64,000 nucleotides of DNA from Candidatus Poribacteria bacterium (GTDB taxonomy: Bacteria; Poribacteria; WGA-4E; WGA-3G): positions 128,001 through 192,000 of the forward strand of contig OZ242029.1 of NCBI GenBank assembly GCA_965205015.1. The letters are read 5' to 3'. The position numbers and the translations under genes were made by a program. Of this stretch, positions 5,636-54,216 are shown piece by piece. The notes beneath the pieces are model-generated. The model searched no databases. It was not told the origin of the DNA and saw only the letters and a program-made list of their open reading frames with translations. Numbering within the stretch: position 1 is the stretch's first letter; each line of letters begins with the position of its first letter.

Positions 5636-5710
5636 TAGCCATCGGTTTCCATCGGAAACCACCAGTCAAGCGTTTTTTGCAACCCCGTAGGGGTAAAACC
5701 TCCGATAATC

Positions 5711-6862: not shown

Positions 6863-6918
6863 GTGCAGTGCCGCTGCAAAGAATCTCGAATAACGACATA
6901 ACACTAAAGGATACATCC

Positions 6919-24447: not shown

Positions 24448-27438
24448 ATGAAAATCAATGGATTCATATCTGCAATTATGTTGACCGGACTGCTACTGAT
24501 TGTCACACTCGGAGACATCACACACGCCCAAGACGAAGAAGTCTGGATGCCGGACCCGAATCTTCGGCAGACTGTCCGTGAAAAACTTGAATTCCCTGAC
24601 GGAATACCGATGCTTCCCGAAGATATGGCAGCATTAAGCCATCTGCTAATAATAGAACACAATATCAATATTGAGAGTTTAAGAGGACTTGAGTATGCCG
24701 TGAACCTTGAATTCGTACATATAGGTAGAGGTGAAGTGTCGGATTTGACACCACTGGCAGGGCTTGAGAACTTATCGGTCTTAAAGTTGTTTAGGAATCC
24801 TATTTCGGATATTTCACCTCTGGCAGGATTGATAGGGCTACGAGAACTTCATTTAGGGAATAGTTTGATCTCGGATTTGACGCCGCTGGCAAACTTACAG
24901 AACCTGAGAGTGCTAAGACTACAGGGCAACCAGATTTCAGATATTTTCCCCCTTGCGGGATTGACAGAACTACGAGAACTTATTTTACAGGGTAACGCCA
25001 TCTCGGATTTCACACCGCTTGTGAGTCTAACGAATTTGCAAACTCTTCATATCTATCCGAATCCGATTCCATTGGGGAACCAATTTATAGGTATAGACAC
25101 ATCACATCTTCAGGCAGCAGAAGAATATTTTATCTGTGAGAAACCAAGACCTTCCTATACAGCCCCTGTGGCAGAACGACTTAACAATCGCGACTATCCG
25201 TCTGTTTTTCTCACACATAAGAGAGCCAACTATGAAGAAGAACCGGATCCATTCAATCAGTTGGTTCACTACGATTTCTCTTTCATGTTCGAGCCGTTCT
25301 ATCCACTTGTTTATCCACATACCTCTAATTCTCCATTTGGGGGTATGATACGGACTGGGAGCCATGAAACTATAACACATCTCTCGCAAGTCCATAGGGA
25401 GGCGATCCGTGAGAACTCGAATATGATATTTATTGTTGAGATTGCATATTTCGATGGGCGTCGCTTCAATATTCCTGAAGACTCGCCTTATTGGTTCCGA
25501 AATCAGGACGGTTCGATAGCACATCGTGGTAACCAGTATCCTGAACCCCTTCTTAATTTTACACATCCCGATGTTATCGAAATGATAATTCAGCATGCAG
25601 TTGCGGTCGCAAAGTGTGGATTATACGATGGTATCTGGCTGGATCGTTGGCAGGAGTTGGAGGGCGATTTTCATGGTGAACTTAGGCATCTCGTACCGAA
25701 AGAAGATGAACTGAATGCGAGGCTCCAAATACTTCAAGGGATCCGGACAAATGTTCCAGAAGATTTTTTGATTATGGTCAATTCAAGGCAAGAACTTCCA
25801 CATTCTGCGCCGTATATTAATGGTGTTTTTATAGAAGCTCATGAGCCAAATCCAACCTACACACATAAAGCTTTGCATCATTTTGAGAAAGCAATAAAGT
25901 GGTATGAGTCGAACTTGAGAGAACCGACTTTTACACTTTTATGGGGTGAAGTTTATCATAAACCTCCAATAACCCAACAGACGGTGCGTCAGTTTACAAC
26001 GCTCAGCCTCACACATTCAGATGGGTATGTGAACGTGAGTTCAGGTGCGCCAGACATTAGCACCTACTGGTACGATTTCTGGGAGGCGCCACTCGGTAGA
26101 CCAATTGGTGGCGATGAAACTAAAGCGCAGTTGTATGAGGATCGCGAGGGGTTGTTTATTCGGGAATTTACCAACGGTTGGGCGGTGTATAATAGGTCTG
26201 GCACAGCACAAGAGATTGAGTTTTCGGAAGAAGTCTCCGGCTGGGACAGCGGGGTGGAACATCAACGCCTGCATACACTCCCCGATTTGGATGGTGAGAT
26301 TTATCTGAAAACCGTTGTGCAAGTCGCACCCGGAGAATACCCACCCCTCTATTGGATAGACGCAAAAACAGATACTCTCCAGAGACTTGTAGATACTGAA
26401 GTCAAAAACCTTATCTCAGAAGTCCAGAACGCAACCAGCCTCACCGTAGATGCCGCCGATGGAAAACTCTATTGGACAACGAAAACAAACGAAAACTGGG
26501 GGGAAATCTACCGCGCAAATCTCAACGGAACACCACGCAGCGAAGAACTTCGGGATTTATATGGGGTCCCCCTTGACATCACAGTGGACCCGCAGAGAAA
26601 GAAGCTTTATTGGATAGACACACTCAACAGAATTCAGCGTTCGGACCTGAATGCCCAAAATATCCAAAATATTCTCCGAGACCTTAACACACCTAAGCAC
26701 ATTACCTTAGATGTAGGACGTGGCAAACTTTATTGGACAGAAAAGACGAGCGATCAGACGAGCGAAATCCGAAGCGCCAATCTTGACGGTTCAAACGTCC
26801 AACGCGTCAAGGAGCTCACCAGTGTGCCTCGCGGTCTTACCATTGACGCTGTAAATGGTAAACTCTATTTGACGAACGCTGACGGGAAAGTCCAACGCCT
26901 CGATGTGGACGGTTCAAACTTCCAACCCGACCTTATCACAGACTTGGACGCGCCCGAGGAAGTGTCCGTAGACGTGGCAGATAGAAAAATCTACTGGACG
27001 GAGCGGACCAGCATCCGGCGGGCAGACTTCAATGGTGAAAATATTGAGGATGTCGTCACTGGTTTAGGGGAGCTCATAGGCATTGTCTTAGGGACTGTGC
27101 CAGCTGGCGCTCCAGCTGCGCCTGCAACTACTGGCATTCCATCCACCGCAACCGTGCTGCTTGCCAACTATCCGAACCCGTTCAACCCAGAGACGTGGAT
27201 ACCGTATCATTTGGCGAGCCCCAGTGATGTGCGGATTACCATCTATGACGCACGCGGCACCGTCATCCGACATTTGGATCTCGGACATCAACGTGAAGGC
27301 TACTACACGAGTCAGAGTCGCGCCGCCTATTGGGACGGCAGAAACGCTGTCGGCGAACGCGTTGCCAGTGGTGTTTATTTCTATCAACTACAGGCGGATA
27401 ATGTGTCGCTCCTGCGAAAGATGATCATCGTAAAATAG
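24448..27438 (+). CDS. secreted protein: LRR + glycoside hydrolase-like + LDL-receptor YWTD repeats + FlgD-Ig/T9SS-like C-terminal domain
   Basis: Signal peptide; LRRs; GKLYWT/KIYWTE repeats; LLANYPNPFNPETWIPY...WDGRN..GERVASGVYFYQL. Confidence 0.88.
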   Translation: MKINGFISAIMLTGLLLIVTLGDITHAQDEEVWMPDPNLRQTVREKLEFPDGIPMLPEDMAALSHLLIIEHNINIESLRGLEYAVNLEFVHIGRGEVSDLTPLAGLENLSVLKLFRNPISDISPLAGLIGLRELHLGNSLISDLTPLANLQNLRVLRLQGNQISDIFPLAGLTELRELILQGNAISDFTPLVSLTNLQTLHIYPNPIPLGNQFIGIDTSHLQAAEEYFICEKPRPSYTAPVAERLNNRDYPSVFLTHKRANYEEEPDPFNQLVHYDFSFMFEPFYPLVYPHTSNSPFGGMIRTGSHETITHLSQVHREAIRENSNMIFIVEIAYFDGRRFNIPEDSPYWFRNQDGSIAHRGNQYPEPLLNFTHPDVIEMIIQHAVAVAKCGLYDGIWLDRWQELEGDFHGELRHLVPKEDELNARLQILQGIRTNVPEDFLIMVNSRQELPHSAPYINGVFIEAHEPNPTYTHKALHHFEKAIKWYESNLREPTFTLLWGEVYHKPPITQQTVRQFTTLSLTHSDGYVNVSSGAPDISTYWYDFWEAPLGRPIGGDETKAQLYEDREGLFIREFTNGWAVYNRSGTAQEIEFSEEVSGWDSGVEHQRLHTLPDLDGEIYLKTVVQVAPGEYPPLYWIDAKTDTLQRLVDTEVKNLISEVQNATSLTVDAADGKLYWTTKTNENWGEIYRANLNGTPRSEELRDLYGVPLDITVDPQRKKLYWIDTLNRIQRSDLNAQNIQNILRDLNTPKHITLDVGRGKLYWTEKTSDQTSEIRSANLDGSNVQRVKELTSVPRGLTIDAVNGKLYLTNADGKVQRLDVDGSNFQPDLITDLDAPEEVSVDVADRKIYWTERTSIRRADFNGENIEDVVTGLGELIGIVLGTVPAGAPAAPATTGIPSTATVLLANYPNPFNPETWIPYHLASPSDVRITIYDARGTVIRHLDLGHQREGYYTSQSRAAYWDGRNAVGERVASGVYFYQLQADNVSLLRKMIIVK
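27166..27383 (+). repeat. ungapped ~218-bp high-identity repeat of the C-terminal domain coding sequence (partner 31573-31790)
   Basis: Long identical blocks, e.g. aactatccgaacccgttcaacccagagacgtggataccgtatca and agtcagagtcgcgccgcctattgggacggcagaaac. Confidence 0.85.
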
Positions 27439-30700: not shown

Positions 30701-31845
30701 GAATAAATGTGTTGTTAGTTGCGGTCGATTTCAATGGTGACGGATGGGGTGCCTATTTTGGATTTGACGCTGACACAGAGTATACAGTCGTATCCCCTGG
30801 CACCGGCTTCACGTTTTCAACCGATGCAACCAGTGTCCGTGTTGGCAATACGTTTACGCTCCGTATCAATGCAGAAAAGGTCACAGATTTATCTGGGTGG
30901 CAATTTGATTTGACTTTTGATCCAGATGTACTTGAAGCGGTTAAGGTGAACGAGGGTGATTTTCTAAAGAAAGGCGGTGGAACGACCTTCTTTCAGCGGG
31001 GCACGGTCAATAACGCCACGGGGAAAATATCAGGCATAAGTGCAGCATTGATTTCCGATAGCGGTGTCACCGGCACTGGAACACTGTTGTCAGTGATATT
31101 TAAGGCAAAGACAGATGGGAATAGTCAAATGGCACTTCATAACTTTCAACTGGGTTCCAGTACTGGCGAAACCATTCCTGCTGATGTGAACGATTTTACC
31201 ATCACTGTGATATCTAAACCAAAGTGGGATGTCAATGCCGACGGACAGGTAAGCGTTCTGGATCTGATTCTGGTGGCACGTCATTTTGGCGAAAAAGCAT
31301 CTGCCAACTCCAAAATTGACGTGAACAATGATGGGATTATCAGCATTTTAGATCTCATCGCTGTAGCACAGCACATGGGTGAATCAACAGCTTCAGCTTC
31401 GCCTTCTACTCTTGCTATGAATAGCATGGACGAATTGAATCCTGTGATGATACAGGCATGGATCGAACAGGCACACGTTGAAGACGACGGCTCCATTGCC
31501 TTCCGAGAGGGTATCGCTTTCCTGCAAGGTCTTTTAGCAATGTTGATTCCAGACGAAACAGCCCTGCTTCCGAACTATCCGAACCCGTTCAACCCAGAGA
31601 CGTGGATACCGTATCACTTGGCAAATCCGAGTGAAGTGACAATCACTATCTATGATATGCGGGGGACCATTGTCCGCCAACTCGATCTCGGTCATCAACC
31701 ACAAGGCTACTACACAAGTCAGAGTCGCGCCGCCTATTGGGACGGCAGAAACACTGTCGGCGAACGCGTTGCAAGTGGTATCTATTTCTACACCCTCACT
31801 GCTGGCGACTTCACAGCGACGCGGAAATTGCTCATACGGAAATAG
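27709..31845 (+). CDS. secreted protein: planctomycete-type cytochrome c + second haem domain + LRR + cohesin + dockerin + FlgD-Ig/T9SS-like C-terminal domain
   Basis: CLNCH...MP and CIGCH haem motifs; LRRs; cohesin-like LSGWQFDLTFDPDVLEA...GTGTLLSVIF; two DVNxDG..S.LDL repeats; PNYPNPFNPETWIPY. Confidence 0.88.
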   Translation: MKNWKILITFVSLLPLILGNFYSATAQDNLAQQAYAIFERNCLNCHGEHGAFTEEIIIDHTALIETGAVVPGKPIESELYRRLLTNDPAKRMPLGQPKLPDAAIRTIGNWIQAGAPSWESQSETAGPFITPKEMLETIEKHLNSLSSFARPFGRYFTLTHLYNAGETTEALHAYQRALSKLVNSLSWGRTIKIPQPIDSEETIFYIDLRDYEWEIGPNRWTLIEKEYPYEIEFNAPTQTVLREKLTNLREAMECEVPFVHVDWFLATASLPPLYHDILGLPETDRELEARLEVNVIENIRNAAGKRVWRAGFNNSGVSNHNRVVERHDSRYGAYWKSYDFAGSKGTQNVLTHPLSFTHDGGEIIFNLPNGLQAYLLVDAGGRRLDEAPIDIVSNPAASDPTVRNGLSCIGCHTEGMKDFEDQVRDVVQKTPNPPFNKDRALQLYTDKGTMDTLVAEDTTRYKQALETAGGVFGGIEPVQRFHEAFQRPVDAAYTAAAVGLKTEPFLKKIRANASLQNLGLLVLENDTMKRDTWTNQFSEVVFALDFPAKSAVTPVDPQAERIPGASVYIPDPNLYAAIAKALGKTPRAVITTEDMETLVSLKAADRGIHDLTGLETAKHLEELELQNNPISDLSSLAGLTKLKGINLRNSSISDLSSLAELITLKEVRFSSKAIVDLSPLAGLVNLEGIGAWNTSISDVSPLTGLTQLQWLELQGSPISDFSPLAKLTNLRKLKMYAAKTSDLSPLKGLTGLKTLTIGVSKISDVSSLAGLINLEVLALFGSGRISDISPLASLKNLKVLDLHTNSISDVSPLAGLRNLEELYLHRNNISDISPLDGLRENTQLVWFGNPGFSQGGPKIEGPWLWMFVQGAYLPNSIDYLSQASDGAVTELEVATHGATEGHRVGEHVWTSHKISPAPTVRPDVNALLSDIGISKDHKRRDGIYGALVLNSPREQQTRMFAGSNHRHKVWLNGEFIHENLGLWAADYQDYFPVTLKQGINVLLVAVDFNGDGWGAYFGFDADTEYTVVSPGTGFTFSTDATSVRVGNTFTLRINAEKVTDLSGWQFDLTFDPDVLEAVKVNEGDFLKKGGGTTFFQRGTVNNATGKISGISAALISDSGVTGTGTLLSVIFKAKTDGNSQMALHNFQLGSSTGETIPADVNDFTITVISKPKWDVNADGQVSVLDLILVARHFGEKASANSKIDVNNDGIISILDLIAVAQHMGESTASASPSTLAMNSMDELNPVMIQAWIEQAHVEDDGSIAFREGIAFLQGLLAMLIPDETALLPNYPNPFNPETWIPYHLANPSEVTITIYDMRGTIVRQLDLGHQPQGYYTSQSRAAYWDGRNTVGERVASGIYFYTLTAGDFTATRKLLIRK

Positions 31846-38085: not shown

Positions 38086-38114
38086 TTGACAAAAACCGCC
38101 TCTATTGTTAATCT
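38086..38114 (+). promoter_or_regulatory. sigma70-type promoter of the oxidoreductase array
   Basis: TTGACA-17 nt-TAATCT. Confidence 0.55.
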
Positions 38115-38184
38115 GATACAATCTATTATTTTCTATAATCTACGGCTTCGATCTTTCCGATCATGGACACCTATGGAGACACCC

Positions 38185-39231: not shown

Positions 39232-39339
39232 TTTAAAACAAATTTATATTGGACGGGTCGAAGTCTCCATGCCTTCGTCCTGTTCTGCGTTCTGGTACGC
39301 TGCTGGCGTGCTATTGTTAGTATTACAGGAGACAACCTC

Positions 39340-40377: not shown

Positions 40378-40420
40378 ACGCAATCCGAATTCAGAGGGAA
40401 CCTTTAGAGGAGACCTTTCC

Positions 40421-41464: not shown

Positions 41465-41470
41465 TCCTCA

Positions 41471-41635
41471 CTTGAGACCCTTACCTTTCGATCAGAGCCT
41501 GAAGTAGCACAAGCCTTTAAACCTGCTTTGGAATCGATGGATGATCTGCAACGTCTCAAGCAGTTGTTTCGCGCCGCAATGCGGGTGGAAAGTCCAGAAG
41601 ATTTCACGCAAGCGTTGAACGCAAACGGCGAATGA
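41471..41635 (+). pseudogene. orphan fragment resembling the helical C-terminus of Rpn/transposase-associated proteins
   Basis: Reads LETLTFRSEPEVAQAFKPALESMDDLQRLKQLFRAAMRVESPEDFTQALNANGE*; no start or RBS of its own. Confidence 0.5.
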
Positions 41636-41728
41636 AACGCGCTGTAATTTTCCACAAGTTCCCTTACACTTTAGTTACGAACATTCATTCATTCTGCTTG
41701 ACATTAGAATATTAAAGGAGACCTCTCC

Positions 41729-42860: not shown

Positions 42861-43589
42861 ATGTCCCTTCCCAAAATTGTGTGTCTCACTTTTCTTCTCT
42901 TCGGCAGCGTCACGCTCGCAACAGATGCTGAATTGGTAGCCTACTGGTCATTTGACAAAGCAGACGGCGTAGATGACCTCACCGGCAACGGCCACGATGG
43001 GAACATCCACGGGAATCCGAAGGTCGTCGCCGGGAAGTTCGGTGAGGCATTAGAATTCAACGGTAGTACCGACTATGTAGAAATCCCTGACGCGCCGGCA
43101 ATCTCTGAACTCGAAGCGTTGTCTATGGCTGCGTGGATTCAGCCGCAAAAACTCGGTTCATGGGTTGCGGTTGCTGAGAAGGGGATTCACCTCAACTGGA
43201 GTTACGGTTTCTTCATTGAACCCGATGGGACACTCTCCTTTGAAGTTTCTACCGGTCCTGGCAACAATCTCGTCTGTTGTGTCGGTAATGTTAAAATGGA
43301 AATTGGAAAATGGTACCATATCTTCGGTTCATACGACGGTAAGTCCGTGAAGGCTTACGTTGACGGAAAACTCGAGGGTGAGATGCCGGGGGCTGATGCC
43401 GTCCATATTACCGAAGGGCTGCCCTTTACAATCGGCAGTCGCAACGGTCAGAACCATTTTGGGGGTGCCGTTGACGACGTGGCATTCTGGAACGAGGCGA
43501 TTTCCGTTGAGGACTCTATGGACCCACTTCCTGTGAAACCGGGCCGAAAACTCACAACGGCCTGGGGAGCAATAAAAACACGACACTAA
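42861..43589 (+). CDS. secreted LamG-like jellyroll protein with TWG-type tail
   Basis: GGAGG RBS; signal peptide; LVAYWSFD, GKFGEALEFNG, WYHI..SYDG; ends PVKPGRKLTTAWGAIK. Confidence 0.88.
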   Translation: MSLPKIVCLTFLLFGSVTLATDAELVAYWSFDKADGVDDLTGNGHDGNIHGNPKVVAGKFGEALEFNGSTDYVEIPDAPAISELEALSMAAWIQPQKLGSWVAVAEKGIHLNWSYGFFIEPDGTLSFEVSTGPGNNLVCCVGNVKMEIGKWYHIFGSYDGKSVKAYVDGKLEGEMPGADAVHITEGLPFTIGSRNGQNHFGGAVDDVAFWNEAISVEDSMDPLPVKPGRKLTTAWGAIKTRH

Positions 43590-43594
43590 AAAAA

Positions 43595-44446
43595 ATGGAA
43601 ACGAATCCTGAAAAATTTGCGAAACACGGTTACTTAGTTGTCCAATCGGCATTATCTGACTCAGATCTTGCCCCGTTAATCGCTGTTATCTCTGAAGCCG
43701 TCGATGCACGTGCCACCGAACTCTATAAAGAAGGGGTCATCTCGGATACCTACGAAGAAATGCCCTTTGAACGCCGTTGGCACGCTGTTTTAAAGGCGTG
43801 CGGCAGAGAAAACGAGGTCTTTGGCTGGCATACGCTTGTCTTCAGCGAGGCACTCTTTCATCTGATAACCCATCCGAAGGTGTTAGACATCTTGGAATCG
43901 CTCATCGGCGGTGATATCCAATTCAATGGCGATTTTTGGGTGCGTCCGAAACTCCCCAACGAAAAACTCACGACCCTCCCTTGGCATCAAGACAGTGCGT
44001 ATATGCCGGACACCGAAAACGATACGCATCTGACCGTTTGGCTCCCGCTCGTCGACGTTAAATTGGAGCATGGTCCCCTACAATTCCTACCGGGAAGCCA
44101 CAAATCAGGCTTACAAACCTATCACCGCGTGTCGGGTGAAGCGTTCGCCGTCCCGGTCCTCCCTCCCACCTCATCTGATACCGACATCGATACCTTAGAG
44201 ATGAAGAAAGGTGACCTACTCGTCTTTAACAATCTGGTATTCCATCGATCATTAGTGAATCACAGCGACAGCATCCGTTGGTCGACAGATTTTCGGTTCA
44301 GTCGCGCCGGTACCTCGCTAAACGGACTCTGGCACGAAGCGATCGCCTGTCCAGCTCGCGAGCGTGAAAGCAGGCAGTGCCCCACGTCATGGCAGACGTG
44401 GCGCGCCCAATGGGAAGTCAGTCCACACAAAGACAGATTTGTTTAA
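43595..44446 (+). CDS. PhyH family dioxygenase
   Basis: PWHQD, TVWLPL, GPLQFLPGSH, GD...HRS..N....R.STDFRF. Confidence 0.9.
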   Translation: METNPEKFAKHGYLVVQSALSDSDLAPLIAVISEAVDARATELYKEGVISDTYEEMPFERRWHAVLKACGRENEVFGWHTLVFSEALFHLITHPKVLDILESLIGGDIQFNGDFWVRPKLPNEKLTTLPWHQDSAYMPDTENDTHLTVWLPLVDVKLEHGPLQFLPGSHKSGLQTYHRVSGEAFAVPVLPPTSSDTDIDTLEMKKGDLLVFNNLVFHRSLVNHSDSIRWSTDFRFSRAGTSLNGLWHEAIACPARERESRQCPTSWQTWRAQWEVSPHKDRFV

Positions 44447-44480
44447 TCCTTCCGCTAAGATTGCCAATCTTAAAAATAGG

Positions 44481-44509
44481 TTGTATCTCCAGATTTTTTA
44501 TGCTATAAT
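44481..44509 (+). promoter_or_regulatory. sigma70-type promoter with extended -10
   Basis: TTGTAT-17 nt (ending TGc)-TATAAT. Confidence 0.6.
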
Positions 44510-44598
44510 TTAAAGTATACACAGCGTAAGAAATGTCTCAGGAGAATCGGGAACGCCTAAGTTTTATCGGTTCTTCTATCAACACATAGGAGGTTGTT

Positions 44599-45357
44599 TT
44601 GTTAAATCTAAGAATTATTACAGTTACCCTCAGTGTGCTACTCATACTGGGTAGCAGCATGCTCAGCTCCGCAGAAATCACTGAAGATATGATCGCGGCA
44701 GCATGGCTGTTTGAGGGCGATGCCGAAGATATGTCCGGAAACGGGTTTGATGGTGAGGTGAAAGGTGGAAACTTTGTCGCTGGGAAATTCGGTGATGCCA
44801 TCGAACTCGACGGCGCAGGCGATTGGGTCGAAATATCTGAACGGATCGGCTCATTTGAAGAAATTACCTTCACACATTGGGTTAAATCCACCGGACGGGA
44901 GGGCGCATGGCGTGTTTTCTTCAATGTCAACGGTTGGAAAGCCGGGGACATCCACTACCAGATGCACCCAAATAATAAAGTCGAGTTTTCCATTCACAGT
45001 AACCCAGGTGGGAACGACACTTTTGCGAACTATATGTTGGCAGGCGATCAGATGGATAAATGGGTCCATATCGCAACCGCCTATAGTGCCAAGGAAAAGA
45101 AAATCCGTTTTTACGTTAATGGCAAACTCAATGCTGAAAACGATTGGGGTGGAAACCCCGGTGTCCTCGATCCTGCCCGAATTGGTGACTGGAACCAAAG
45201 TCGACAATGGGAAGGGCTGTTAGATGAGTTCATCATCTTCAATACTGTCCTCGATAAAGATGACATAGAAGCGGTTATGAATGACGGTTTCGAGACGACC
45301 CTCGCTGTGGACGCGAAAGAAAAGTTGGCCGTCACATGGGGCAGTCTAAAAAAGTAA
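44599..45357 (+). CDS. secreted LamG-like protein with TWG-type tail
   Basis: TTG start with GGAGG RBS; DMSGNGFDG, GKFGDAIELDG, WVHIA, G.LDEF.IFN; ends LAVDAKEKLAVTWGSLKK. Confidence 0.88.
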   Translation: MLNLRIITVTLSVLLILGSSMLSSAEITEDMIAAAWLFEGDAEDMSGNGFDGEVKGGNFVAGKFGDAIELDGAGDWVEISERIGSFEEITFTHWVKSTGREGAWRVFFNVNGWKAGDIHYQMHPNNKVEFSIHSNPGGNDTFANYMLAGDQMDKWVHIATAYSAKEKKIRFYVNGKLNAENDWGGNPGVLDPARIGDWNQSRQWEGLLDEFIIFNTVLDKDDIEAVMNDGFETTLAVDAKEKLAVTWGSLKK

Positions 45358-45403
45358 GACGGAGAAGCGATCACCGAGTCGCATTTTCAAAAGGAAAATA
45401 AAT

Positions 45404-46243
45404 ATGCTTTTGGCAAAACGCTATCTGAATTATACGTTCATTGCAATTGTTGTTATTGCGCTCAGCTTCGTGGTGATGGCTACAAGCCACGCGGCGGATG
45501 AAGGCGATATTGCAGGGATGTGGACCTTTGAAGAAGGTAAAGGTAAAGAAGTAAAAGATCTTTCCGGTAACGGAACCGACGGTGAATTTGTCGGCGACCT
45601 GAAATGGGCGAAAGGCAAATTTGGTGGCGGATTAGAATTTAACGGGGCAGACACGTGGGTCAAACTCGGCACGAAGGGTGAAGATAAAACGTTAGCCGCT
45701 TTGGACTTCAAGGATTCTAAAGGGTTCTCAATCCATTCTTGGGTCTACGCTGCAGAGGATCCCACCGGGAAATGTGTCATATGGAAAGGGCTTGGATGTT
45801 CAACCTGGTCGCAGTTTTTACTCGGAACGGGCGCACACGAAAACGGGCAAAATAGCACACAGGCAGCATTCCATATCCGCGCCGCCAACGGTGGCGGGAA
45901 ACTTGAAGTCCTCGGTGATGAACTCCCGTCTAAAGAGTGGGTACATCTCGTCGGCACATGGGATGGCGCCCAACTCCATGTCTACGTCAACGGCAAACTA
46001 CAGAACTCCGAAGATGCAAAGGGACCGCCGTGGGCATCTCCCGAAGAGGTCTACATCGGTGCCGATCCGGGCTGTGGCAAACGCTGCCAGTGGAACGGTA
46101 TCATCGACGAAGTTGTTGTCTTCAACACGGTGCTCACGGATGATGAGGTCGTCAAACTCGGTGAGGGTATTGAAGGCTATTTAGCTGTTGAGGCAGCAGG
46201 AAAAATAGCGACAACTTGGGGTTCACTCAAATCTTCCCAATAG
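45404..46243 (+). CDS. secreted LamG-like protein with TWG-type tail
   Basis: DLSGNG, GKFGGGLEFNG, WVHLVGTWDG, GIIDEV; ends LAVEAAGKIATTWGSLK. Confidence 0.9.
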   Translation: MLLAKRYLNYTFIAIVVIALSFVVMATSHAADEGDIAGMWTFEEGKGKEVKDLSGNGTDGEFVGDLKWAKGKFGGGLEFNGADTWVKLGTKGEDKTLAALDFKDSKGFSIHSWVYAAEDPTGKCVIWKGLGCSTWSQFLLGTGAHENGQNSTQAAFHIRAANGGGKLEVLGDELPSKEWVHLVGTWDGAQLHVYVNGKLQNSEDAKGPPWASPEEVYIGADPGCGKRCQWNGIIDEVVVFNTVLTDDEVVKLGEGIEGYLAVEAAGKIATTWGSLKSSQ

Positions 46244-46346
46244 ATACGCACCGAAACGTCACTATACAGAGTGTTTGAAAATGAGATGTCTACCAAACTG
46301 AGGTGGGCATCTCCTCGTGAGTTGTATCCCGAAGGAGAACCTCAAA

Positions 46347-47054
46347 ATGAGAATCCAAAGACTGTGTGTTGTTAGTTTTTGGGTGGCTCTTCTGTTGTTT
46401 GGAAACGTAATGGCAGAGACACTCTTCTTTGATGATTTTGAGGGAAACGCTGAGATCGAATGGCCCGATGTGCCAGCGATAAAAATTGAAAAAGAGCCGG
46501 GCAATCCAGACAACACCGTCCTCGTTTTTGACACAAGAAACGATCAAACCCACGCCGATGCCCTCTTCCTTGAAGGGTTCGAGGATCTGACGGACTACAC
46601 AGTGCGAGCAAAATTCAATATCGTTGGTGAAACAGCGGATTTTGCCGCAATCGGTTTGATTGTACGGGCGCAGTTGGCAACCGAATATATGCTCGTCGAA
46701 CCGGCGAGAAAACGACTGTGTTGCGGAGATCCACGAGAAAACATCCTCAATGTCTTTGAACGCGGTGCGGGTTGGCCGATCGTCGCCAAAACGGACATCG
46801 ATATTGAACTCGACGAATGGCATGAACTGTCGGTCACTGTAGAAAACAAAAAACTAACTGTCTTCCTCGATGGCAAACAGATTGTTGAATACGGTAAAGT
46901 CCCTTATCCGAAAGGGGGTTTCGGCATCCGTGAGTGGAAATCTGAAACCCTCATCGATGATGTGGAGGTCTTTGATAAAGGCGGTTCAAGCCTTGCCGTC
47001 GAATCACGTGACAAACTTACCCTCACATGGGGAAAGTTGAAAGCTACACAGTAG
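46347..47054 (+). CDS. secreted DUF1080/concanavalin-like protein with TWG-type tail
   Basis: LFFDDFE, TDYTVRAKF, WHELSV, GGFGI...IDDVEV; ends LAVESRDKLTLTWGKLK. Confidence 0.8.
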   Translation: MRIQRLCVVSFWVALLLFGNVMAETLFFDDFEGNAEIEWPDVPAIKIEKEPGNPDNTVLVFDTRNDQTHADALFLEGFEDLTDYTVRAKFNIVGETADFAAIGLIVRAQLATEYMLVEPARKRLCCGDPRENILNVFERGAGWPIVAKTDIDIELDEWHELSVTVENKKLTVFLDGKQIVEYGKVPYPKGGFGIREWKSETLIDDVEVFDKGGSSLAVESRDKLTLTWGKLKATQ

Positions 47055-47105
47055 ATTCCCAGACCCGATTAAGAAACCAGAAACAGCCTAAAGGACACAC
47101 AATAC

Positions 47106-47894
47106 ATGGACTTAGGATTGAGTGGAAAACGCGCAATCGTTACCGGCGGTAGTCGAGGCATTGGTAGGCAGTGCGCGCTTGCCCTCGCACAAGAGGGTGT
47201 TCATGTCTGTATTGCCGCCCGAACACAAGACGCACTCCATCAAGTCCTCTCGGAACTTGAACAGACTGGATCCAAAGGACATACTGTCGCAGGCGATCTA
47301 AATATACCGGCGAATTGTGAGAAGGTGGTGCAGGAGACAATTGATCGCTTCGGTGGTGTCGATATCCTCGTCAACAATGTCGGTGCCGCTCGGAATGCCG
47401 ATATTTTGGCACTCTCACCAAACCTAATTGATGAAGCACTTTCCTTGAAAACTTATAGTTACCTTCGGATGGCACAACTGGTTATCCCCTACATGAAGGA
47501 AAGTCAGTGGGGACGCATCATCAACATCGCAGGTTCAGCCGGTACAAGCCCCACGCGTAGCAACATACCAACAGGGGCAGCCAACATCACGATTCTGAAC
47601 ATCACACGCGCACTCTCCGATGCTGTCGCCGGCGACGGCATCTTGGTAAATACCGTTTGCCCGGGATTGACGAACACCGGTCGAGCACGCACGCAGCAAG
47701 GTGCAAGAGCTGCACGTGAAGAACGTGATGTCGAGGCACTGTTACAGGAACTCGGGCAAGAACTTCCTGCGGGACGTATCGCGGAACCGGAAGAGATCGC
47801 GAACGTCGTAACATTTTTAGCCTCCGAAGCCTGCTCCTACATGTTTGGGAGCGCGCTTTATATGGATGGCGGCAAACGTCGTTCAACCCCATAA
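47106..47894 (+). CDS. short-chain dehydrogenase/reductase
   Basis: TGGSRGIG, DILVNN, VNTVCPG; catalytic YxxxK is replaced (PTGAAN). Confidence 0.9.
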   Translation: MDLGLSGKRAIVTGGSRGIGRQCALALAQEGVHVCIAARTQDALHQVLSELEQTGSKGHTVAGDLNIPANCEKVVQETIDRFGGVDILVNNVGAARNADILALSPNLIDEALSLKTYSYLRMAQLVIPYMKESQWGRIINIAGSAGTSPTRSNIPTGAANITILNITRALSDAVAGDGILVNTVCPGLTNTGRARTQQGARAAREERDVEALLQELGQELPAGRIAEPEEIANVVTFLASEACSYMFGSALYMDGGKRRSTP

Positions 47895-47933
47895 GGGTAT
47901 CAAAAAAGAATTACTTTGAAGGAGATTGTTCAA

Positions 47934-48707
47934 ATGAATATTGTTAAGCGTTTATCAACCCACAAATTTCTCCTCTTCACGCTGGTATATGCCGCTATTT
48001 TTGCCTGGACTTCCAGCAGCTTCGGCGAAGTTTTATACCTCGACGATTTCGAAGATGGAAAAATTGATGGCGACTATGAATTCAAGAACCATGACGGCGA
48101 TTGGGTAGAAAAGGGCGGCGTTATCAGTCAAACGCATGAAGCCCCCGGCGACCATACCTACCTCGTCTTAGACGGCGGTTTTCCAGAACCCCATACCGGC
48201 TTAGTCATGATTCGCGTCGATGATTGGGGAGACGGTGACCTTGCACGGTGTGGACTCGGATTTCGGCTTGATCCGGGGGATGCCTCCGGTTACGCCTTCC
48301 TGATTCACCATTTCCTCAACAACATGGAGTTCCTCAACGACCATCGCGCGTGGAAACAGAACGATACCGAACCGCCCTTCGGAGAGGTAGCACTCGGTAC
48401 ATGGTACTGGATGAAAGCCGAAATATCTGACAAGGGGTTTACTGGCAAAATCTGGGAAGATGGCGAAAATGAACCCAAAGACTGGCTTCTTGAAAGTAAA
48501 CTCGACTTCGGGGGTCCCAGACCTGAAAGCGGACAAGTCGGACTCAACGGGGGTTCAAGCAGAGGCGCACCCGCGTTGACCATTGTCTCATTTGACAACT
48601 GGGCTATTTGCGAGACAGCCGACGAGTGCACACCCGATGAGATCCTCGCTGTTCAGGCAACTGGCAAACTGCCAACCCTTTGGGGCGAGATCAAAGCACG
48701 CTACTAA
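47934..48707 (+). CDS. secreted beta-sandwich protein with TWG-type tail
   Basis: Signal peptide; YLDDFEDG; WYWMK...GKIW...EP.DW; ends LAVQATGKLPTLWGEIK. Confidence 0.8.
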   Translation: MNIVKRLSTHKFLLFTLVYAAIFAWTSSSFGEVLYLDDFEDGKIDGDYEFKNHDGDWVEKGGVISQTHEAPGDHTYLVLDGGFPEPHTGLVMIRVDDWGDGDLARCGLGFRLDPGDASGYAFLIHHFLNNMEFLNDHRAWKQNDTEPPFGEVALGTWYWMKAEISDKGFTGKIWEDGENEPKDWLLESKLDFGGPRPESGQVGLNGGSSRGAPALTIVSFDNWAICETADECTPDEILAVQATGKLPTLWGEIKARY

Positions 48708-48711
48708 TATA

Positions 48712-48812
48712 GTTATCAGTTCGCCTGCTCCGCAGGAAACCTTCAGTCTTCAGTTATCAGTAACAAGAAGGTTCTGTTCAACCAGAATCCTCTTTAACTG
48801 ATAACTGATAAC
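48712..48812. repeat. long intergenic hairpin with heptamer (TTATCAG) repeat arms
   Basis: cagttatcagt (48751-48761) pairs with actgataactg (48797-48807); inner stem aagaaggttctg / cagaatcctctt. Confidence 0.75.
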
Positions 48813-48873
48813 CAAAGATCATTAATTCTGCCAACGACTCAGGACGTGGAGTCATATCCACACACATTAACGT

Positions 48874-49041
48874 ATGGGAACAATTTTATTCGTCATTTTC
48901 GGGATCGTCATTCTTGTTGTATGTATCCTGATTCTCTTCCAAATTTTGCAAGCAATTTTCGCCTTCCTATTTTCCGTCGCCCTCTTCATCGTTGTCGTTG
49001 GCGGCGCGTTTCTGATTCTCAGAAAAATTTTTAGAGGATGA
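48874..49041 (+). CDS. small 55-aa two-TM membrane protein (missing from ORF track)
   Basis: MGTILFVIFGIVILVVCILILFQILQAIFAFLFSVALFIVVVGGAFLILRKIFRG*. Confidence 0.6.
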   Translation: MGTILFVIFGIVILVVCILILFQILQAIFAFLFSVALFIVVVGGAFLILRKIFRG

Positions 49042-49108
49042 AAGCCCCTCGGACGTAAGGTTCGCTTGCACGTTCCCCATACATAAAAGAATCAAAGGAG
49101 ATTCACTT

Positions 49109-49903
49109 ATGTTGCAAAAGGCTATTCTTTTCTCACTAATCCTCGCAATTAGTTTTATCGGAACCAACCTCTCCGCGCAAATCGTCGAAGATGGACTGGT
49201 CAGTTATTGGAGTTTCGATGCAAACAACATCGACGGAAAGACCGTTAAGGACGGAACCGGCAATTACAACGGCTCTATCAAGGGGAATCTGAAAAAAGTC
49301 GGCGGTAAAATCGGCGACGCATTGGAGTTCGACGGAGACGAGGGAAATTTTGTCGAAATCGACAGTCCAGAAGAATTTGATTTCAACGCCGATTTCACTT
49401 GGTCGGCATGGATAAAAACCGATAATTCCGGACCCGGCGTCATCTTCGCCAAAACAGGCGGTCCCGGTACCGATGATAAGGGTCCCAAAACCCTATGGGT
49501 TCGTAATAGCGTCCTTAATCTCGACACCGGCTGGGTCGGTAACGTCGAAGATGTAGGAAACAACATCGACGATAATAAGTGGCACCATATCGCCATCGCA
49601 GGTACACCCGAGGATAGTAAGGTCCAATTCTTCGTTGATGGCGAAGCAACCGCCGAGGGTGTGCTGAACCTCGCCCAATTCCCTGAAGATGAATGGGCAA
49701 GTATCCATATGTTTATCGGTTTAGACGGTAGAGCCGACGGTGAATTCGGTGTGTTTACCGGTATCATAGACGAATTCAGCATCTACGATCGAGTCCTTGA
49801 CGAAGGCGAAGTCAATCAGAACTTCAAGTCTGACACAGGACTCGCAGTTGATCCCAACGGCAAACTCGCCGTGACATGGGGAACTCTCAAAGCACACCGA
49901 TAA
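49109..49903 (+). CDS. secreted LamG-like protein with TWG-type tail
   Basis: DGLVSYWSFD, GKIGDALEFDG, WHHIA, GIIDEFSIYDRVL; ends LAVDPNGKLAVTWGTLK. Confidence 0.9.
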   Translation: MLQKAILFSLILAISFIGTNLSAQIVEDGLVSYWSFDANNIDGKTVKDGTGNYNGSIKGNLKKVGGKIGDALEFDGDEGNFVEIDSPEEFDFNADFTWSAWIKTDNSGPGVIFAKTGGPGTDDKGPKTLWVRNSVLNLDTGWVGNVEDVGNNIDDNKWHHIAIAGTPEDSKVQFFVDGEATAEGVLNLAQFPEDEWASIHMFIGLDGRADGEFGVFTGIIDEFSIYDRVLDEGEVNQNFKSDTGLAVDPNGKLAVTWGTLKAHR

Positions 49904-50033
49904 GCGTTCTACCTTCCAGAGGCGCGTTCTGCAAACGCGCCTCTAAACATACCTGCACAATATCGTACAGGTTTGCGGTTAAGCCGTGGCAGGAGCCCGC
50001 AACAACGGCACGGATATACGCAGAGGCACGTGA

Positions 50034-51437
50034 ATGCACAAATCTACTTTACCCAACCGCAAGGTAAAATTAAAAAATCGAACCATCTTTGAAGGTGACA
50101 ATTTGTATGTGCTTCGCGGTCTTGACGCCGATACCATCGATCTGATCTATCTCGACCCGCCTTTCAACTCCAACCGAACCTTTGAAGCACCGACAGAGAG
50201 CGAGGCAGCAGGCGCAGCATTCAAAGATTCCTGGACACTCAACGATTTAGACAACGCGTGGCACGGTGAACTCGCAGAGAAAGCACCCGATCTTTATCAC
50301 GCCATCAGTACCGCTGAATTCACGCACGGGAAATCCATGAAAGCCTATCTGATTATGATGGGTATCAGGATGTTGGAGATGTATCGAATCCTGAAACCGA
50401 CAGGAACCCTCTATCTCCATTGCGATGACAACGCGAGTCACTACCTGAAAATGATGATGGACGGCATTTTCGGAAGAGACAATTTTAGGAACGAGATCGT
50501 TTGGCAAAGGGCTGTAACCAGCAAAGGGAATCTCAAAAAGGGCCTGGCGCGAGACGCTGATCTCATCCTCCGGTATTCAAAAAGCAACGATTTCGTCTGG
50601 AATCCTGACGCCGTCACAATCCCTTACGATATGGAGGATCTCGACGAAAAAACCAAACGTCAATATTATTACGTTGAACCCGGCACCGGACGATTCGTAG
50701 CGCATACCTCTATCACCGCTCAGACGCAGGACCCCGATTCTCACCTCACATACGAAGTCATGGGCGTTACCAGAACATGGCGGTGGGCGGAATCGCGGAT
50801 GCTCAAGGAAATCGAAGCCGGACGTGTTGTGCAGACACGTCCCGGAAATGTCCCCCGATACAAACGCTACCTTGATGAACAGAAAGGTAAAACGCTGAAC
50901 AACATCTGGGTAGATATCCCCAACCTAACAGCACGAAATAAAGAGCGGATTGGGTACCCCACACAGAAACCTATCGCCTTGTTAGAGCGAATTATCCGTG
51001 CGAGCAGCAATCCGGGAGACCTGGTACTCGATCCTTTCTGCGGGTGTGCTACCACATGTATTGCCGCAGAACGTCTACAACGGCATTGGATCGGTATCGA
51101 TTTAAGTTCCAAATCTTTCGAACTTGCCAAACTGCGGCTTGAACAGCACGGGATTATCAAGAAGGTTATCCACCGAAAGGGCACTCCTAAACTTGACCAG
51201 CAAGATCGAACCTGTAAACATACGCTATTTGGACTTCAGGAGGGTAGATGCAATGCCTGCCAAACGGTATCCCCATTTCGTGATATGAGAGTTGACCACA
51301 TTGTAGCCCTATCCAAAGGAGATGCCGATACGCTCGACAATCTTCAGTTGTTGTGTAGAGCGTGTAAATCGATGAAGCAGAATAGCACACAAGATCAACT
51401 GATTCAGACGTTGAAAACCGAAGGAATTTTGCTATGA
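50034..51437 (+). CDS. DNA methyltransferase (beta class) fused to a C-terminal HNH domain
   Basis: YLDPPFNS, GYPTQKP, LDPFCGC; then CNAC...VDHIVALSKG....NLQLLCRAC. Confidence 0.92.
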   Translation: MHKSTLPNRKVKLKNRTIFEGDNLYVLRGLDADTIDLIYLDPPFNSNRTFEAPTESEAAGAAFKDSWTLNDLDNAWHGELAEKAPDLYHAISTAEFTHGKSMKAYLIMMGIRMLEMYRILKPTGTLYLHCDDNASHYLKMMMDGIFGRDNFRNEIVWQRAVTSKGNLKKGLARDADLILRYSKSNDFVWNPDAVTIPYDMEDLDEKTKRQYYYVEPGTGRFVAHTSITAQTQDPDSHLTYEVMGVTRTWRWAESRMLKEIEAGRVVQTRPGNVPRYKRYLDEQKGKTLNNIWVDIPNLTARNKERIGYPTQKPIALLERIIRASSNPGDLVLDPFCGCATTCIAAERLQRHWIGIDLSSKSFELAKLRLEQHGIIKKVIHRKGTPKLDQQDRTCKHTLFGLQEGRCNACQTVSPFRDMRVDHIVALSKGDADTLDNLQLLCRACKSMKQNSTQDQLIQTLKTEGILL

Positions 51438-52216
51438 AAAAATTTATGAAGTTTGATAAGACCGCGGCCAGGATGATAGCAGCCGTCGCGCTGATATTCT
51501 TCGCAACACATCTCACAGCAGTTGCAAAGCGCGATAAACAGTACGTCGCCAAACAAATCACGAACCTCAAAGTGGATGGCGATCTCAGCGAATGGAAACG
51601 CGCCGAAATCGTTGCTTTTGATGAATTGAAGGATGTCGGGGACGGTGCCCCCAAAGCCAGTGATTTTACGGGGCAGGATAGGGTCGCGTGGAGCGCACAA
51701 GACCCAACCCGCATCTATTTCGCTGTTGAAATTACCGACGATAAACTCCAAGATATTCATCCAGACAATACGAAGTGGTGGGAAGACGATAGCGTCGAAT
51801 TCATGTTTGATTTCGACAATGGAATGGTCCGAGAGAGCCTCGTGCAGTGGACACTCGGCGCAAATGGCAAGGATTTATCCGCTGCTGCATCTAAAGAAAA
51901 CACCGAATGGGTGCTCGTCAACAATGGAAATGATTACATCTATGAAGTCGCCATTGATCCAACAAAGCCGCGTGGTAACCCACAGTTTGCGAATCCCGCG
52001 AAAGGGAAAAATTTCAAAGCGAAAGATGGCTTACTTATCGGGCTTAGCTTCCACGCGAACGATTGTGAGGGTGGAGGACGCCAACATCAGATTGGATGGA
52101 CACCCGGCGGAGCATGGGATGGCCTCGCCTACGGCGACCTCATTTTCGACGATGAAGTATTAGCCGTCGCGCCCGCTGGTAAACTTGCTTTGACGTGGGG
52201 TGCGCTTAAACAGTAA
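51434..52216 (+). CDS. secreted CBM9/DOMON-like sugar-binding protein with TWG-type tail
   Basis: VDGDLSEW, IYFAVEITDD, DSVEF.FD, YEVAI, ND.E; ends LAVAPAGKLALTWGALKQ. Confidence 0.85.
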   Translation: MKKFMKFDKTAARMIAAVALIFFATHLTAVAKRDKQYVAKQITNLKVDGDLSEWKRAEIVAFDELKDVGDGAPKASDFTGQDRVAWSAQDPTRIYFAVEITDDKLQDIHPDNTKWWEDDSVEFMFDFDNGMVRESLVQWTLGANGKDLSAAASKENTEWVLVNNGNDYIYEVAIDPTKPRGNPQFANPAKGKNFKAKDGLLIGLSFHANDCEGGGRQHQIGWTPGGAWDGLAYGDLIFDDEVLAVAPAGKLALTWGALKQ

Positions 52217-52287: not shown

Positions 52288-54216
52288 ATGCCAAAATCTC
52301 ATGCGTCAGTTACATCTGGAATTACGCTTCGATCGCTCTTCATTGGCACACTCCTCGTTATCGGGAATGCCTACTGGCTTGCCTATGCGGCTGAGATGAT
52401 TCAGCCGCAATTCCTTCTTAATTTCGTCTCACTCTTCTTCAACGCCCTTTTCACACTTTTCGCCGTTATCGCTTTCAACCTCGTTTGGAAAAAACTTGCG
52501 CCGCGCAGCGCACTGACCCCACAGGAACTCCTCGTTATCTATATCATGGTCGTCATGGTATCCACCATCGGCGGTCATTCCATGATGACGTTCCTGATCG
52601 GGACACTCGCCCATCCGTTCCGGTTTGCTACCATTGAAAACGAATGGGCATCTCTCTTTTGGCGTTACATCCCGACATGGTTTGTGCCTGAGGACTACGC
52701 ACTCGATGCCTACTTTAAGGGTGGCTTGAGTTTTTACCTCCCGAAGCATCTACGCGGCTGGATGGTACCGATTCTTGTCTGGACAGGATTTGTCGCACTC
52801 CTCTGGTTTACACTGATATGCCTCAATAGCATCATCCGCGTTCAATGGACGGAGCGTGAAAAGTTGGCATATCCGATTATCCAATTACCGCTCCAGATGG
52901 CGCAAGGACGGAAAAGTTTTTACAGAAACACCACGATGTGGGTCGGTTTTTCGGTCGCCGCGTTTATTGAACTCCTCGCGGGATTAAGCCATCTATTCCC
53001 TCAAATCCCCGCTATTCAACTGAGTTCCTATTCTATCACGCATCTGTTCACGGACAAACCGTGGAACGCTGTCGGGTGGGTCCCTCTATCTATCTACCCG
53101 TTTATCATAGGACTCACATTTTTTGTCCCGTTGGACATCTCGATGTCGGCGTGGTTTTTCTACCTGTTTGGTAAAGCGGAACGGGTGATTCGCACGGGGA
53201 TGTTAGGTGAAGGTGAACTCTATTTCGCAGAGCGAGCAGGTGGGGCATGGCTCGCCGTCGGAATCTTGGCACTGTGGGGAACCCGGCGACATCTCCGTGA
53301 TGTCATCCTGAATTGCTTGACGACCAAAAAAGCGTATGATGATTCAAATGAACCGATGCCCTACCGTGTCGCTGTCCTCGGATTAATCTTCGGAGGTATC
53401 GGACTCACGCTATTTTCGGTAAAAGCGGGTATGTCCTTAGGCGGTGTCCTTGGCTTTATCGTCATTTTCATCCTGATGGCACTCGGCGTTACACGCGTGC
53501 GTGCCGAATTTGGACCCCCCTCCCACGAGATTCTCGCCCTCGATCCCGCACGATTGATGGTCGTCACCTTTGGCGCACGCTTCGTCGGGACTGGTAATCT
53601 CACAATCATATCCTTCTACTACTGGCTCAACCGACTTAATGTTTCGCATCCGATGCCAAACCAATTAGAAGGCTTCAAACTCGCAGAACGAGCAGGCATA
53701 AACAGTCGAAGACTGGTCTGGGTGATGATGTTCGCGATTGTTGTCGGGACACTCGCATCGTTTTGGGCGTTCCTCTATCTCCTTTATGAGACCGGAGCAT
53801 TCGCTGTACACGGCTACATCCTGGGTATTGGGGAGGAGGTCTTCGGGAGACGTTTAGAACGGTGGCTCAACAATCCTACCGGTCCGAATTGGGATGGCAC
53901 ACAATCCATGGGCATCGGCGCAGGGATGACATGGATCCTCTATTTCCTGCGGCATAAATTTATCTGGTGGCCCTTCCATCCGATCGGATACGTGATGACG
54001 GCTGCCACCTGGGGCGGTCTCGCCGATTTCTGGTTCTCCGTCTATATCGGCTGGATGATAAAGGTTATCATTGTCTCAATCTTCGGTCTACGCGCACATC
54101 AACGCGCAATCCCATTCTTTCTGGGATTGGTCATGGGCGATTATGTATTCGTAGGGGGCTGGGCACTCATCGGCACACTGTTCGATATGCCGACATACGT
54201 CCTCTGGTCACCTTAG
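52288..54216 (+). CDS. polytopic membrane protein, DUF6785/DUF6784-type (OPT-like putative transporter)
   Basis: Many TM helices; QWTEREKLAYPI, RVRAEFG, WWPFHPIGY, PFFLGLVMGD. Confidence 0.75.
   Translation: MPKSHASVTSGITLRSLFIGTLLVIGNAYWLAYAAEMIQPQFLLNFVSLFFNALFTLFAVIAFNLVWKKLAPRSALTPQELLVIYIMVVMVSTIGGHSMMTFLIGTLAHPFRFATIENEWASLFWRYIPTWFVPEDYALDAYFKGGLSFYLPKHLRGWMVPILVWTGFVALLWFTLICLNSIIRVQWTEREKLAYPIIQLPLQMAQGRKSFYRNTTMWVGFSVAAFIELLAGLSHLFPQIPAIQLSSYSITHLFTDKPWNAVGWVPLSIYPFIIGLTFFVPLDISMSAWFFYLFGKAERVIRTGMLGEGELYFAERAGGAWLAVGILALWGTRRHLRDVILNCLTTKKAYDDSNEPMPYRVAVLGLIFGGIGLTLFSVKAGMSLGGVLGFIVIFILMALGVTRVRAEFGPPSHEILALDPARLMVVTFGARFVGTGNLTIISFYYWLNRLNVSHPMPNQLEGFKLAERAGINSRRLVWVMMFAIVVGTLASFWAFLYLLYETGAFAVHGYILGIGEEVFGRRLERWLNNPTGPNWDGTQSMGIGAGMTWILYFLRHKFIWWPFHPIGYVMTAATWGGLADFWFSVYIGWMIKVIIVSIFGLRAHQRAIPFFLGLVMGDYVFVGGWALIGTLFDMPTYVLWSP

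Follow-up and report, generated by a model that had tools for sequence, protein, structure and literature searches.

The stretch of DNA analyzed here (the window) comprises 64,000 nucleotides from a Candidatus Poribacteria bacterium (contig OZ242029.1, positions 128,001 to 192,000 of the forward strand), and between its positions 42861 and 52216 it carries seven genes for exported proteins that end in a common sequence of 18-20 residues, referred to below as the TWG tail. A preliminary description of the window had put forward this tail as a candidate sorting signal on seven secreted proteins with unrelated folds. All seven open reading frames (ORFs) and their tails were found again at the coordinates and with the sequences first reported, and are as follows (window positions; each protein is named below by its first position):

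42861..43589, + strand: exported LamG (PF13385) protein of 242 residues with a TWG tail (ORF, Pfam, orthologue comparison)
43527..43586, + strand: TWG tail LPVKPGRKLTTAWGAIKTRH of 42861 (hidden Markov model (HMM) and orthologues)
44599..45357, + strand: exported LamG protein of 252 residues, TTG start, with a TWG tail (ORF, Pfam, orthologues)
45301..45354, + strand: TWG tail LAVDAKEKLAVTWGSLKK of 44599 (HMM and orthologues)
45404..46243, + strand: exported LamG protein of 279 residues with a TWG tail (ORF, Pfam, orthologues)
46181..46240, + strand: TWG tail LAVEAAGKIATTWGSLKSSQ of 45404 (HMM and orthologues)
46347..47054, + strand: exported DUF1080-like (PF06439, just below the cut-off) protein of 235 residues with a TWG tail
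46992..47051, + strand: TWG tail LAVESRDKLTLTWGKLKATQ of 46347 (HMM and orthologues)
47934..48707, + strand: exported protein of 257 residues, no credible Pfam match, with a TWG tail
48645..48704, + strand: TWG tail LAVQATGKLPTLWGEIKARY of 47934 (HMM and orthologues)
49109..49903, + strand: exported LamG protein of 264 residues with a TWG tail (ORF, Pfam, orthologues)
49841..49900, + strand: TWG tail LAVDPNGKLAVTWGTLKAHR of 49109 (HMM and orthologues)
51434..52216, + strand: exported CBM9-fold protein of 260 residues with a TWG tail (Pfam, AlphaFold)
52160..52213, + strand: TWG tail LAVAPAGKLALTWGALKQ of 51434 (HMM and orthologues)

Aligned with one another, the seven tails share the invariant columns L-x-V, K, W-G and K. 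An HMM built from 64 tails of a related genome (G004), a few of which belong to orthologues of the window genes, was run against 1,880 six-frame ORFs of the window and matched exactly these seven tails, all of them C-terminal (E 5e-11 to 1.5e-6), with the next-best ORF at E 3.3. N-termini resembling Sec signal peptides could be read by eye in all seven proteins, in agreement with the preliminary description. Their bodies are less diverse than had been thought: 42861, 44599, 45404 and 49109 all have LamG bodies that are homologous to one another (identities of 25-34% at E 1e-12 to 1e-19), 46347 gives weak matches to both DUF1080 and LamG, and the CBM9 protein 51434 is the sole clearly different body. 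Because four of the bodies are homologous, the window alone shows about three families and not seven folds; the unrelated folds that had been claimed are found genome-wide, as described below. Homologues of 44599 occur at 54 genome loci (70-94% identity; 53 in Poribacteria and one in an ‘uncultured bacterium’). Across 54 Poribacteria loci the tail is kept in 229 of 232 orthologues of the window tail proteins, and it is present in none of the 164 homologues found for four genes nearby (PhyH, SDR, methylase and DUF6785), whose products are non-exported or membrane proteins, in line with the earlier remark that the cytoplasmic enzymes encoded in between lack it.

The TWG tail is a real, phylum-wide and uncatalogued C-terminal tag. 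Genome-wide statements made here and below rest on related Poribacteria genomes and not on the window's own genome. A strict motif, i.e. the DNA pattern for K-h-x-x-x-W-[GA]-x-h-K, was found in all 150 sampled Poribacteria genomes with 7-197 matches each, as compared to 0-6 for the reversed pattern that served as a control. With a looser motif, 252 of 263 matches in closed ORFs (55 loci) end within 6 residues of the stop codon; the eleven internal matches, two of them read-throughs in L034 and nine others that lack the upstream motif, were set aside. A profile of the tail retrieved 956 clusters at E ≤0.001 among 1.84 billion representatives, and in 143 of the best 150 of these clusters, many of which are fragments, it lies within 8 residues of the end. 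Within genomes G050, G133 and G139, 49 of 50 matches fall at most 12 residues from the stop and the remaining one at 13, and proteins bearing the tail alone reach 472-648 residues there. Overall, the motif lies almost always at the C-terminus of proteins that bear signal peptides and are about 190-650 residues long.

The nature of the cargo was surveyed in G004, which has 74 strict matches; the surroundings of most were examined, and 45 tail proteins were picked for variety. Their Pfam assignments include LamG, DUF1080, CBM9, F5/8, CBM4_9, GH43_C2-like, PD40 propeller and RhaB_D2/PA14 bodies, and 23 of the 45 have no Pfam match. By a crude heuristic, 68 of 75 tail proteins from G004 and the window start with a signal peptide-like segment, as do 124 of 381 other ORFs; these 75 proteins are 185-430 residues long (median 264), and a doubtful lipobox was seen in two. 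Retention is also high among 120 CBM9 homologues, 118 of which keep the tail (both exceptions are truncated). One apparent 1,292-residue sigma-factor fusion with a terminal tail crosses unreadable bases into a signal peptide-like segment, and was counted as two genes. Orphan or duplicated tail fragments were seen at L081:802-966 (-), L102:421-573 (-) and L336:8271-8435 (+), with P0239 listed in the same group, and one protein carries three tandem partial tails; such fragments suggest that the tail is a 3' cassette that is readily duplicated and shuffled.

The consensus of the tail is [LT]-[PAD]-V-E-[PA]-x-[GD]-K-L-[AT]-T-T-W-[GA]-x-[LI]-K, followed by 1-7 residues, the last of which is variable. 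Numbered relative to the tryptophan (position 0), a logo of 69 G004 tails shows L/T at -12, P/A/D at -11, V (95%) at -10, then E, P/A, x and G/D, K at -5, L (88%) at -4, then A/T, T, T, W, G/A, x, L/I/V and K; of these, the search pattern itself imposes the K, the W and the final K, but not the V at -10. As had been proposed, the tail contains no transmembrane segment, the highest 19-residue Kyte-Doolittle mean in the last 25 residues being 1.1 over the 75 proteins. Its supposed amphipathic character is weak, as the mean hydrophobic moment is 0.31 versus 0.29 for shuffled tails and exceeds the shuffles in 47 of 75. These values bear on whether the tail might be a direct membrane or lipopolysaccharide anchor, i.e. 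a basic, tryptophan-containing helix that binds lipid or lipopolysaccharide with no protein reader. The positive net charge of 62 of the 75 tails and the low-confidence helix described below agree with such an anchor, but its hydrophobic moment hardly rises above that of shuffles, and V(-10), K(-5), W, G/A and K(+4) are near-invariant at fixed spacing. Fixed residues at fixed spacing are a tighter constraint than lipid binding usually requires, and we consider a direct anchor improbable.

AlphaFold modeling of 51434 from a 79-sequence alignment produced the separate helix that the preliminary description had suggested looking for, albeit at low confidence. The model contains a confident CBM9 body (block pLDDT 74-96) that ends near residue 211, followed by coil and then by a separate helix spanning residues 220-228, with pLDDT values of 59 and 47 for the tail. 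Solved CBM9 domains of 189-195 residues are complete without the tail. A single-sequence model of 44599 had a mean pLDDT of 43, which is too low for use.

The tail had been described as distinct from the FlgD-type C-terminal domain (CTD) used in type IX secretion systems (T9SS), which is carried by two other proteins in the window:

27169..27429, + strand: T9SS type A CTD (TIGR04183, 32.6 bits, cut-off 23) of the 996-residue protein at 24448; no TWG motif before the CTD
31576..31836, + strand: T9SS type A CTD (38.3 bits) of the 1,378-residue protein at 27709; no TWG motif

The distinction stands insofar as TIGR04183, PF18962 and PF13860 match neither the seven tail proteins nor 71 Poribacteria tails and do match 24448 and 27709, but elsewhere in the phylum the motif directly precedes the type A CTD. 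At 1-11 codons upstream of N[YF]PNP, the pattern W-[GA]-x-h-K was found in 96 of 150 genomes (1-6 times each, against 0 for the control); at 12-21 codons upstream it was found in only 4 of 150. All 27 loci that were read are in-frame tail-CTD fusions in which the linker is largely kept, with V at -10 in 20 and K at -5 in 15. Complete fusion proteins are 578-1,300 residues long with WD40, FG-GAP/ASPIC or S8 bodies, and their genes often lie directly downstream of tail-only genes. This junction, at a nearly fixed spacing, is the only regular internal position of the motif that was found; otherwise, the tail was not often internal or on cytoplasmic proteins, nor was it integral to each fold or a match to an already characterised signal. 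The exchange of modules between signals was also examined. L104, a tail-only protein of G004, contains a module that shares 38.6% identity with part of 27709 over 215 residues (E 7e-32), i.e. one module with either signal, and searches for further swaps were negative: no plasmid matched a CHRD-plus-tail protein, the tail was present in 0 of 18 longer LamG homologues, and no CTD-bearing form was found among the 120 CBM9 homologues. The two window proteins with a type A CTD (24448-27438 and 27709-31845) contain internalin-like leucine-rich repeats; in one of them these are joined by LDL-receptor repeats and a GHL15-like domain, and in the other, 27709, by cytochrome c, cohesin and dockerin domains.

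In appearance, a free tail corresponds to a fusion protein cut short immediately after the motif, which raises the possibility that it is a structural cap or relic, either a remnant left by a lost CTD or a shuffled folding element, with no sorting role. The paralogy of four of the seven window bodies and the orphan and tandem tail fragments are in keeping with such an origin. Against it, the tail is retained in nearly all orthologues and CBM9 homologues, its conservation is better in free tails than in fusions, it occurs on unrelated folds and in other phyla, and solved CBM9 domains are complete without it. We regard a relic as the least probable of the explanations considered here.

A sister form of the tail occurs in at least two further uncultured phyla. 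The pattern T-W-G-x-[IV]-K-x-L-Y-R, searched in metagenome DNA with no stop constraint, matched at least 130 stretches, and among the matches listed all 127 in-frame translations end within 4 residues of the pattern, 114 of them exactly at the R; 114 of 118 further matches also fit the strict end, with lengths of 99-403 residues. Upstream lies T/V-P/A-V/T-x, the same linker placed five residues closer. Ten sister proteins were looked up, and the three clusters with organism names belong to Ca. Krumholzibacteria (two) and Ca. Eisenbacteria (one); an Eisenbacteria CHRD protein also bears the sister tail. Their bodies include CHRD, LTD and beta-helix domains, 18 of 22 tested have no Pfam match, and type A CTD genes adjoin sister-tail genes in several long contigs. 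A cysteine often stands 9-11 positions before the W in sister tails (13-26% per position; L132-L257), unlike in Poribacteria tails. In G004, a CBM9 protein with a divergent tail ending like the Eisenbacteria/Krumholzibacteria form is encoded right behind the PorU-PorV pair (L077:6826-7536 (-)); at that place G007 has another tail gene and G001 has none.

Kamke et al. 2014 (PMC3909097) reported T9SS-type CTDs (TIGR04183) in Poribacteria, came upon no genes for the structural parts of the system and did not settle the pathway. Our searches recovered several candidate components. C25 peptidases are present in 150 of 150 Poribacteria genomes (1-5 each); the best PDB match of the Poribacterial enzyme is PorU (6ZA2), and the catalytic His and Cys motifs are present in the eight copies inspected. 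Five genomes (G001, G004, G007, G050 and G133) were analyzed for the remaining parts. Each encodes 2-3 PorU-like C25 proteins, all ending in a FlgD-type CTD, and in all five a C25 (PorU-like) gene immediately precedes a gene of the PorV family. Each genome yields 8-16 matches to the PorV family, of which many are paired with a single large CTD protein and some stand alone; they were grouped into paralogues with a quick IQ-TREE result that carried long-branch warnings and served only that purpose. An SprA-like ORF of 2,020-2,340 residues is present in four of the five genomes, with a score of 0.93 for the SprA cluster in the ESM Atlas. The T9SS-like set lies at loci L075, L077-L079, L080-L091 and L258-L297. 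One group-a PorV gene in G007 is accompanied by four tail genes, an arrangement that none of the other four genomes shows.

Collectively, the terminal position, co-occurrence with signal peptides, many copies, unrelated bodies, lack of a transmembrane helix, separate low-confidence helix and lack of a family match provide good support for a dedicated C-terminal sorting or docking tag, and it is very probable that the tail is read by a protein in one of these two capacities. The preliminary description had also reached for such a tag, proposing either a signal for an uncharacterised machine or a docking peptide. As the motif also occurs internally, directly before the type A CTD, it is tied to the T9SS-like system, and a wholly uncharacterised machine is thus less likely than a new T9SS-related signal. 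Most likely, the tail and the T9SS type A signal are partners, the tail being the peptide-sized one. We assign an even chance to the proposition that the tail is a minimal address tag for the envelope whose reader belongs to the T9SS-like machinery of Poribacteria.

In such a mechanism, the cargo, which from its sequences consists mostly of single lectin-like or propeller domains with an N-terminal signal peptide, would cross the inner membrane by Sec and fold in the periplasm, leaving the tail free as a linker and a short K-L-x-x-x-W-G-x-L-K helix. A specific pocket, most likely on a stand-alone PorV-family barrel or on one of the 2-3 PorU-like C25 sortases, would bind the helix and so bring the cargo to the cell surface or hold it there. 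The tail alone would serve small cargo, and the tail plus the type A CTD some larger cargo, with the tail at the junction that PorU cuts in Bacteroidota. Two outcomes can be envisaged: we lean towards the tail being kept as a non-covalent dock, and consider it possible, if somewhat doubtful, that it is cut at the [LT]/[PAD]-V linker and the cargo moved to a glycan anchor. More tentatively still, the tails of Poribacteria, Eisenbacteria and Krumholzibacteria could constitute a third, peptide-sized class of T9SS signal, in which the folded CTD gives way to a helix of 15-20 residues. This helix would be read by a dedicated PorV-family barrel or PorU-like sortase, in a T9SS that may lack the Gld motor, and between tens and about two hundred glycan-binding domains would be displayed on the surface of each cell.

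Several observations weigh against assigning the tail to a T9SS-like reader. Known T9SS signals are beta-sheet domains of at least 40 residues, and the tail has about 20 and is predicted to be helical. The putative +1 position is proline in 36% of Poribacteria tails and 54% of sister tails, where small residues are usually preferred. Only 5 of 27 fusions keep the L at -4, versus 88% of free tails, most type A cargo has no motif (10-72 NYPNPFNP sites versus 0-2 fusions per genome in the five genomes), and the split between small tail-only proteins and larger fusions is a tendency only, with tail-only proteins of up to 648 residues. The identity of SprA is weak (two of five over the cut-off, no PDB sequence match), and GldM and GldN, the two motor and ring proteins that were sought, were found in none of the five genomes in a search that had no positive control above the cut-off. 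As the tail and the T9SS parts are both universal in Poribacteria, their co-occurrence there is uninformative. Finally, tail genes are not enriched near PorV: for 8 of 57 PorV-family genes a tail gene lies within 4 kb, which by a rough estimate is close to the number expected from 2-3% of genes.

This last result would also suit a docking peptide that acts independently of export, binding a non-T9SS periplasmic or surface scaffold non-covalently in the manner of dockerin and cohesin; the CTD would then export the fusions, and tail-only proteins may stay periplasmic. The fixed spacing and invariant W and K, which point to a protein pocket, the frequent proline at the putative cut site, which suits an uncut tail, the use of cohesin and dockerin domains in this genome (27709), and the common operon-like runs of tail-only and fusion genes are all compatible with a dock of this kind. 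However, no conserved scaffold gene was seen beside the tail clusters of the window and related genomes, the only regular internal position is the CTD junction with its nearly fixed spacing, and a PorU cut upstream of that junction would strip the tail from fusion proteins. We judge export-independent docking unlikely, although it carries more weight than the other alternatives.

Several neighbouring genes of the window are recorded here in their own right. Directly upstream of the tail cluster, 38086-42766 encodes four tandem, closely similar oxidoreductase-like paralogues of 345-381 residues, which we take to be of the Gfo/Idh/MocA type. An N6/N4 DNA methylase fused to an HNH domain (50034-51437) is flanked by a tail gene on either side and shares 4 nucleotides with the start of 51434, and a DUF6785 plus DUF6784 membrane protein is encoded at 52288-54216; by eye, similar-looking genes adjoin group-f PorV genes in three genomes. 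Two long ORFs (19012-21204 and 21601-24318) presumably start like extracytoplasmic function (ECF) sigma factors and run on for 500-700 further residues, and three adjacent exported-looking ORFs at 5093-7938 (180, 383 and 356 residues) have no Pfam match at E 0.1.

If true, the T9SS-related reading of the tail would name the address label of a large protein set, mostly annotated ‘hypothetical’ (7-197 strict matches per genome), in a dominant uncultured sponge symbiont and in at least two further uncultured phyla. With PorU-, PorV- and SprA-like genes now found in Poribacteria, in which the earlier genome study (PMC3909097) reported no structural genes, the tail would provide a second, testable class of cargo. 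Should a 20-residue peptide suffice for outer-membrane sorting, this would change what counts as a T9SS signal and would offer a very small display tag.

The claim that the tail fits no known sorting signal held for all the named families that were tested. Of 131 tails (71 Poribacteria, 60 sister), none is matched by an NCBIfam sorting model, no Pfam model matches the 71 Poribacteria tails, and CHU_C/TIGR04131 (type B CTD) does not match the tails; the best hit of the tail profile among PDB sequences has an E of 0.48, which is not credible, and the tail alone retrieves only unnamed clusters under 0.9 in the ESM Atlas. No paper describing the tail was found in the literature, although a mention in subscription journals or bioRxiv supplements is possible. 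The tail fails as an outer-membrane protein beta-signal, as its bodies are soluble LamG, CBM9 or propeller domains and it has no fixed terminal aromatic residue. A microcompartment encapsulation peptide was ruled out because the cargo has signal peptides, and a possible likeness to an SLH motif was set aside, with no Pfam match.

The tail was also compared with the tripartite small sorting signals, i.e. LPXTG, PEP-CTERM, GlyGly-CTERM, MYXO-CTERM and WGxxGxxG-CTERM, as set out in bioRxiv 10.1101/2023.06.07.544157. The tail shares with them its short length, terminal place, multiple copies, invariant motif and basic end, but differs in having no transmembrane helix, no exosortase found and no model match. 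A related explanation is that a periplasmic chaperone, a tail-specific protease or an intramembrane sortase reads the tail, possibly as a relative of PEP-CTERM that lacks the transmembrane helix. The many-per-genome, terminal logic is the same, the LamG homologue P0434 ends in a PEP-CTERM-like segment, and the V-E-P-x-x-W pattern of sister tails presumably resembles the PEPxxWA subtype. On the other side, the tail has no hydrophobic segment, no NCBIfam sorting model matches it, and exosortase (PF09721), the one sortase family of this kind that was sought, was found in none of the five genomes in a search whose control was positive. We consider this route decidedly improbable, a shade less so than a relic.

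Within the T9SS, short CTDs are described for Prevotella intermedia (PMC11969387); they are 40-51 residues long and still cut and glycosylated, with the cleavage consensus PT/GI. The linker of the tail resembles this consensus, and both have a conserved aliphatic residue at +2 of the (putative) cleavage site, but the Prevotella domains keep a three-stranded sheet and motifs B, D and E, whereas the TWG tail is half as long and has another motif. CTD types A-C, the type B CTD with its cognate PorP/SprF barrels, and the uncut PorZ/PorQ and PorU/PorV pairs are described in PMC10202324. Type B needs 100-200 residues and clusters with its own barrels, whereas tail genes do not cluster with PorV genes; nonetheless, these cases set a precedent for a second, uncleaved signal class with a PorV-like barrel to itself, and several PorV-family barrels of Poribacteria stand alone. 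The type A CTD itself (TIGR04183/PF18962, and PF13860 FlgD_ig-like in Poribacteria), which is read by PorV and cut by PorU, is an immunoglobulin-like sandwich of 70-90 residues, whereas the tail is a predicted helix of about 20 that has no CTD motifs (B, D, E), no HMM match, often a proline at +1 and mostly small cargo. However, the tail is likewise C-terminal, found on many folds, Sec-exported and present in many copies per genome; it starts with a linker like the cleavage motif, is fused before the CTD in 96 of 150 genomes, and occurs alongside PorU-, PorV- and SprA-like genes.

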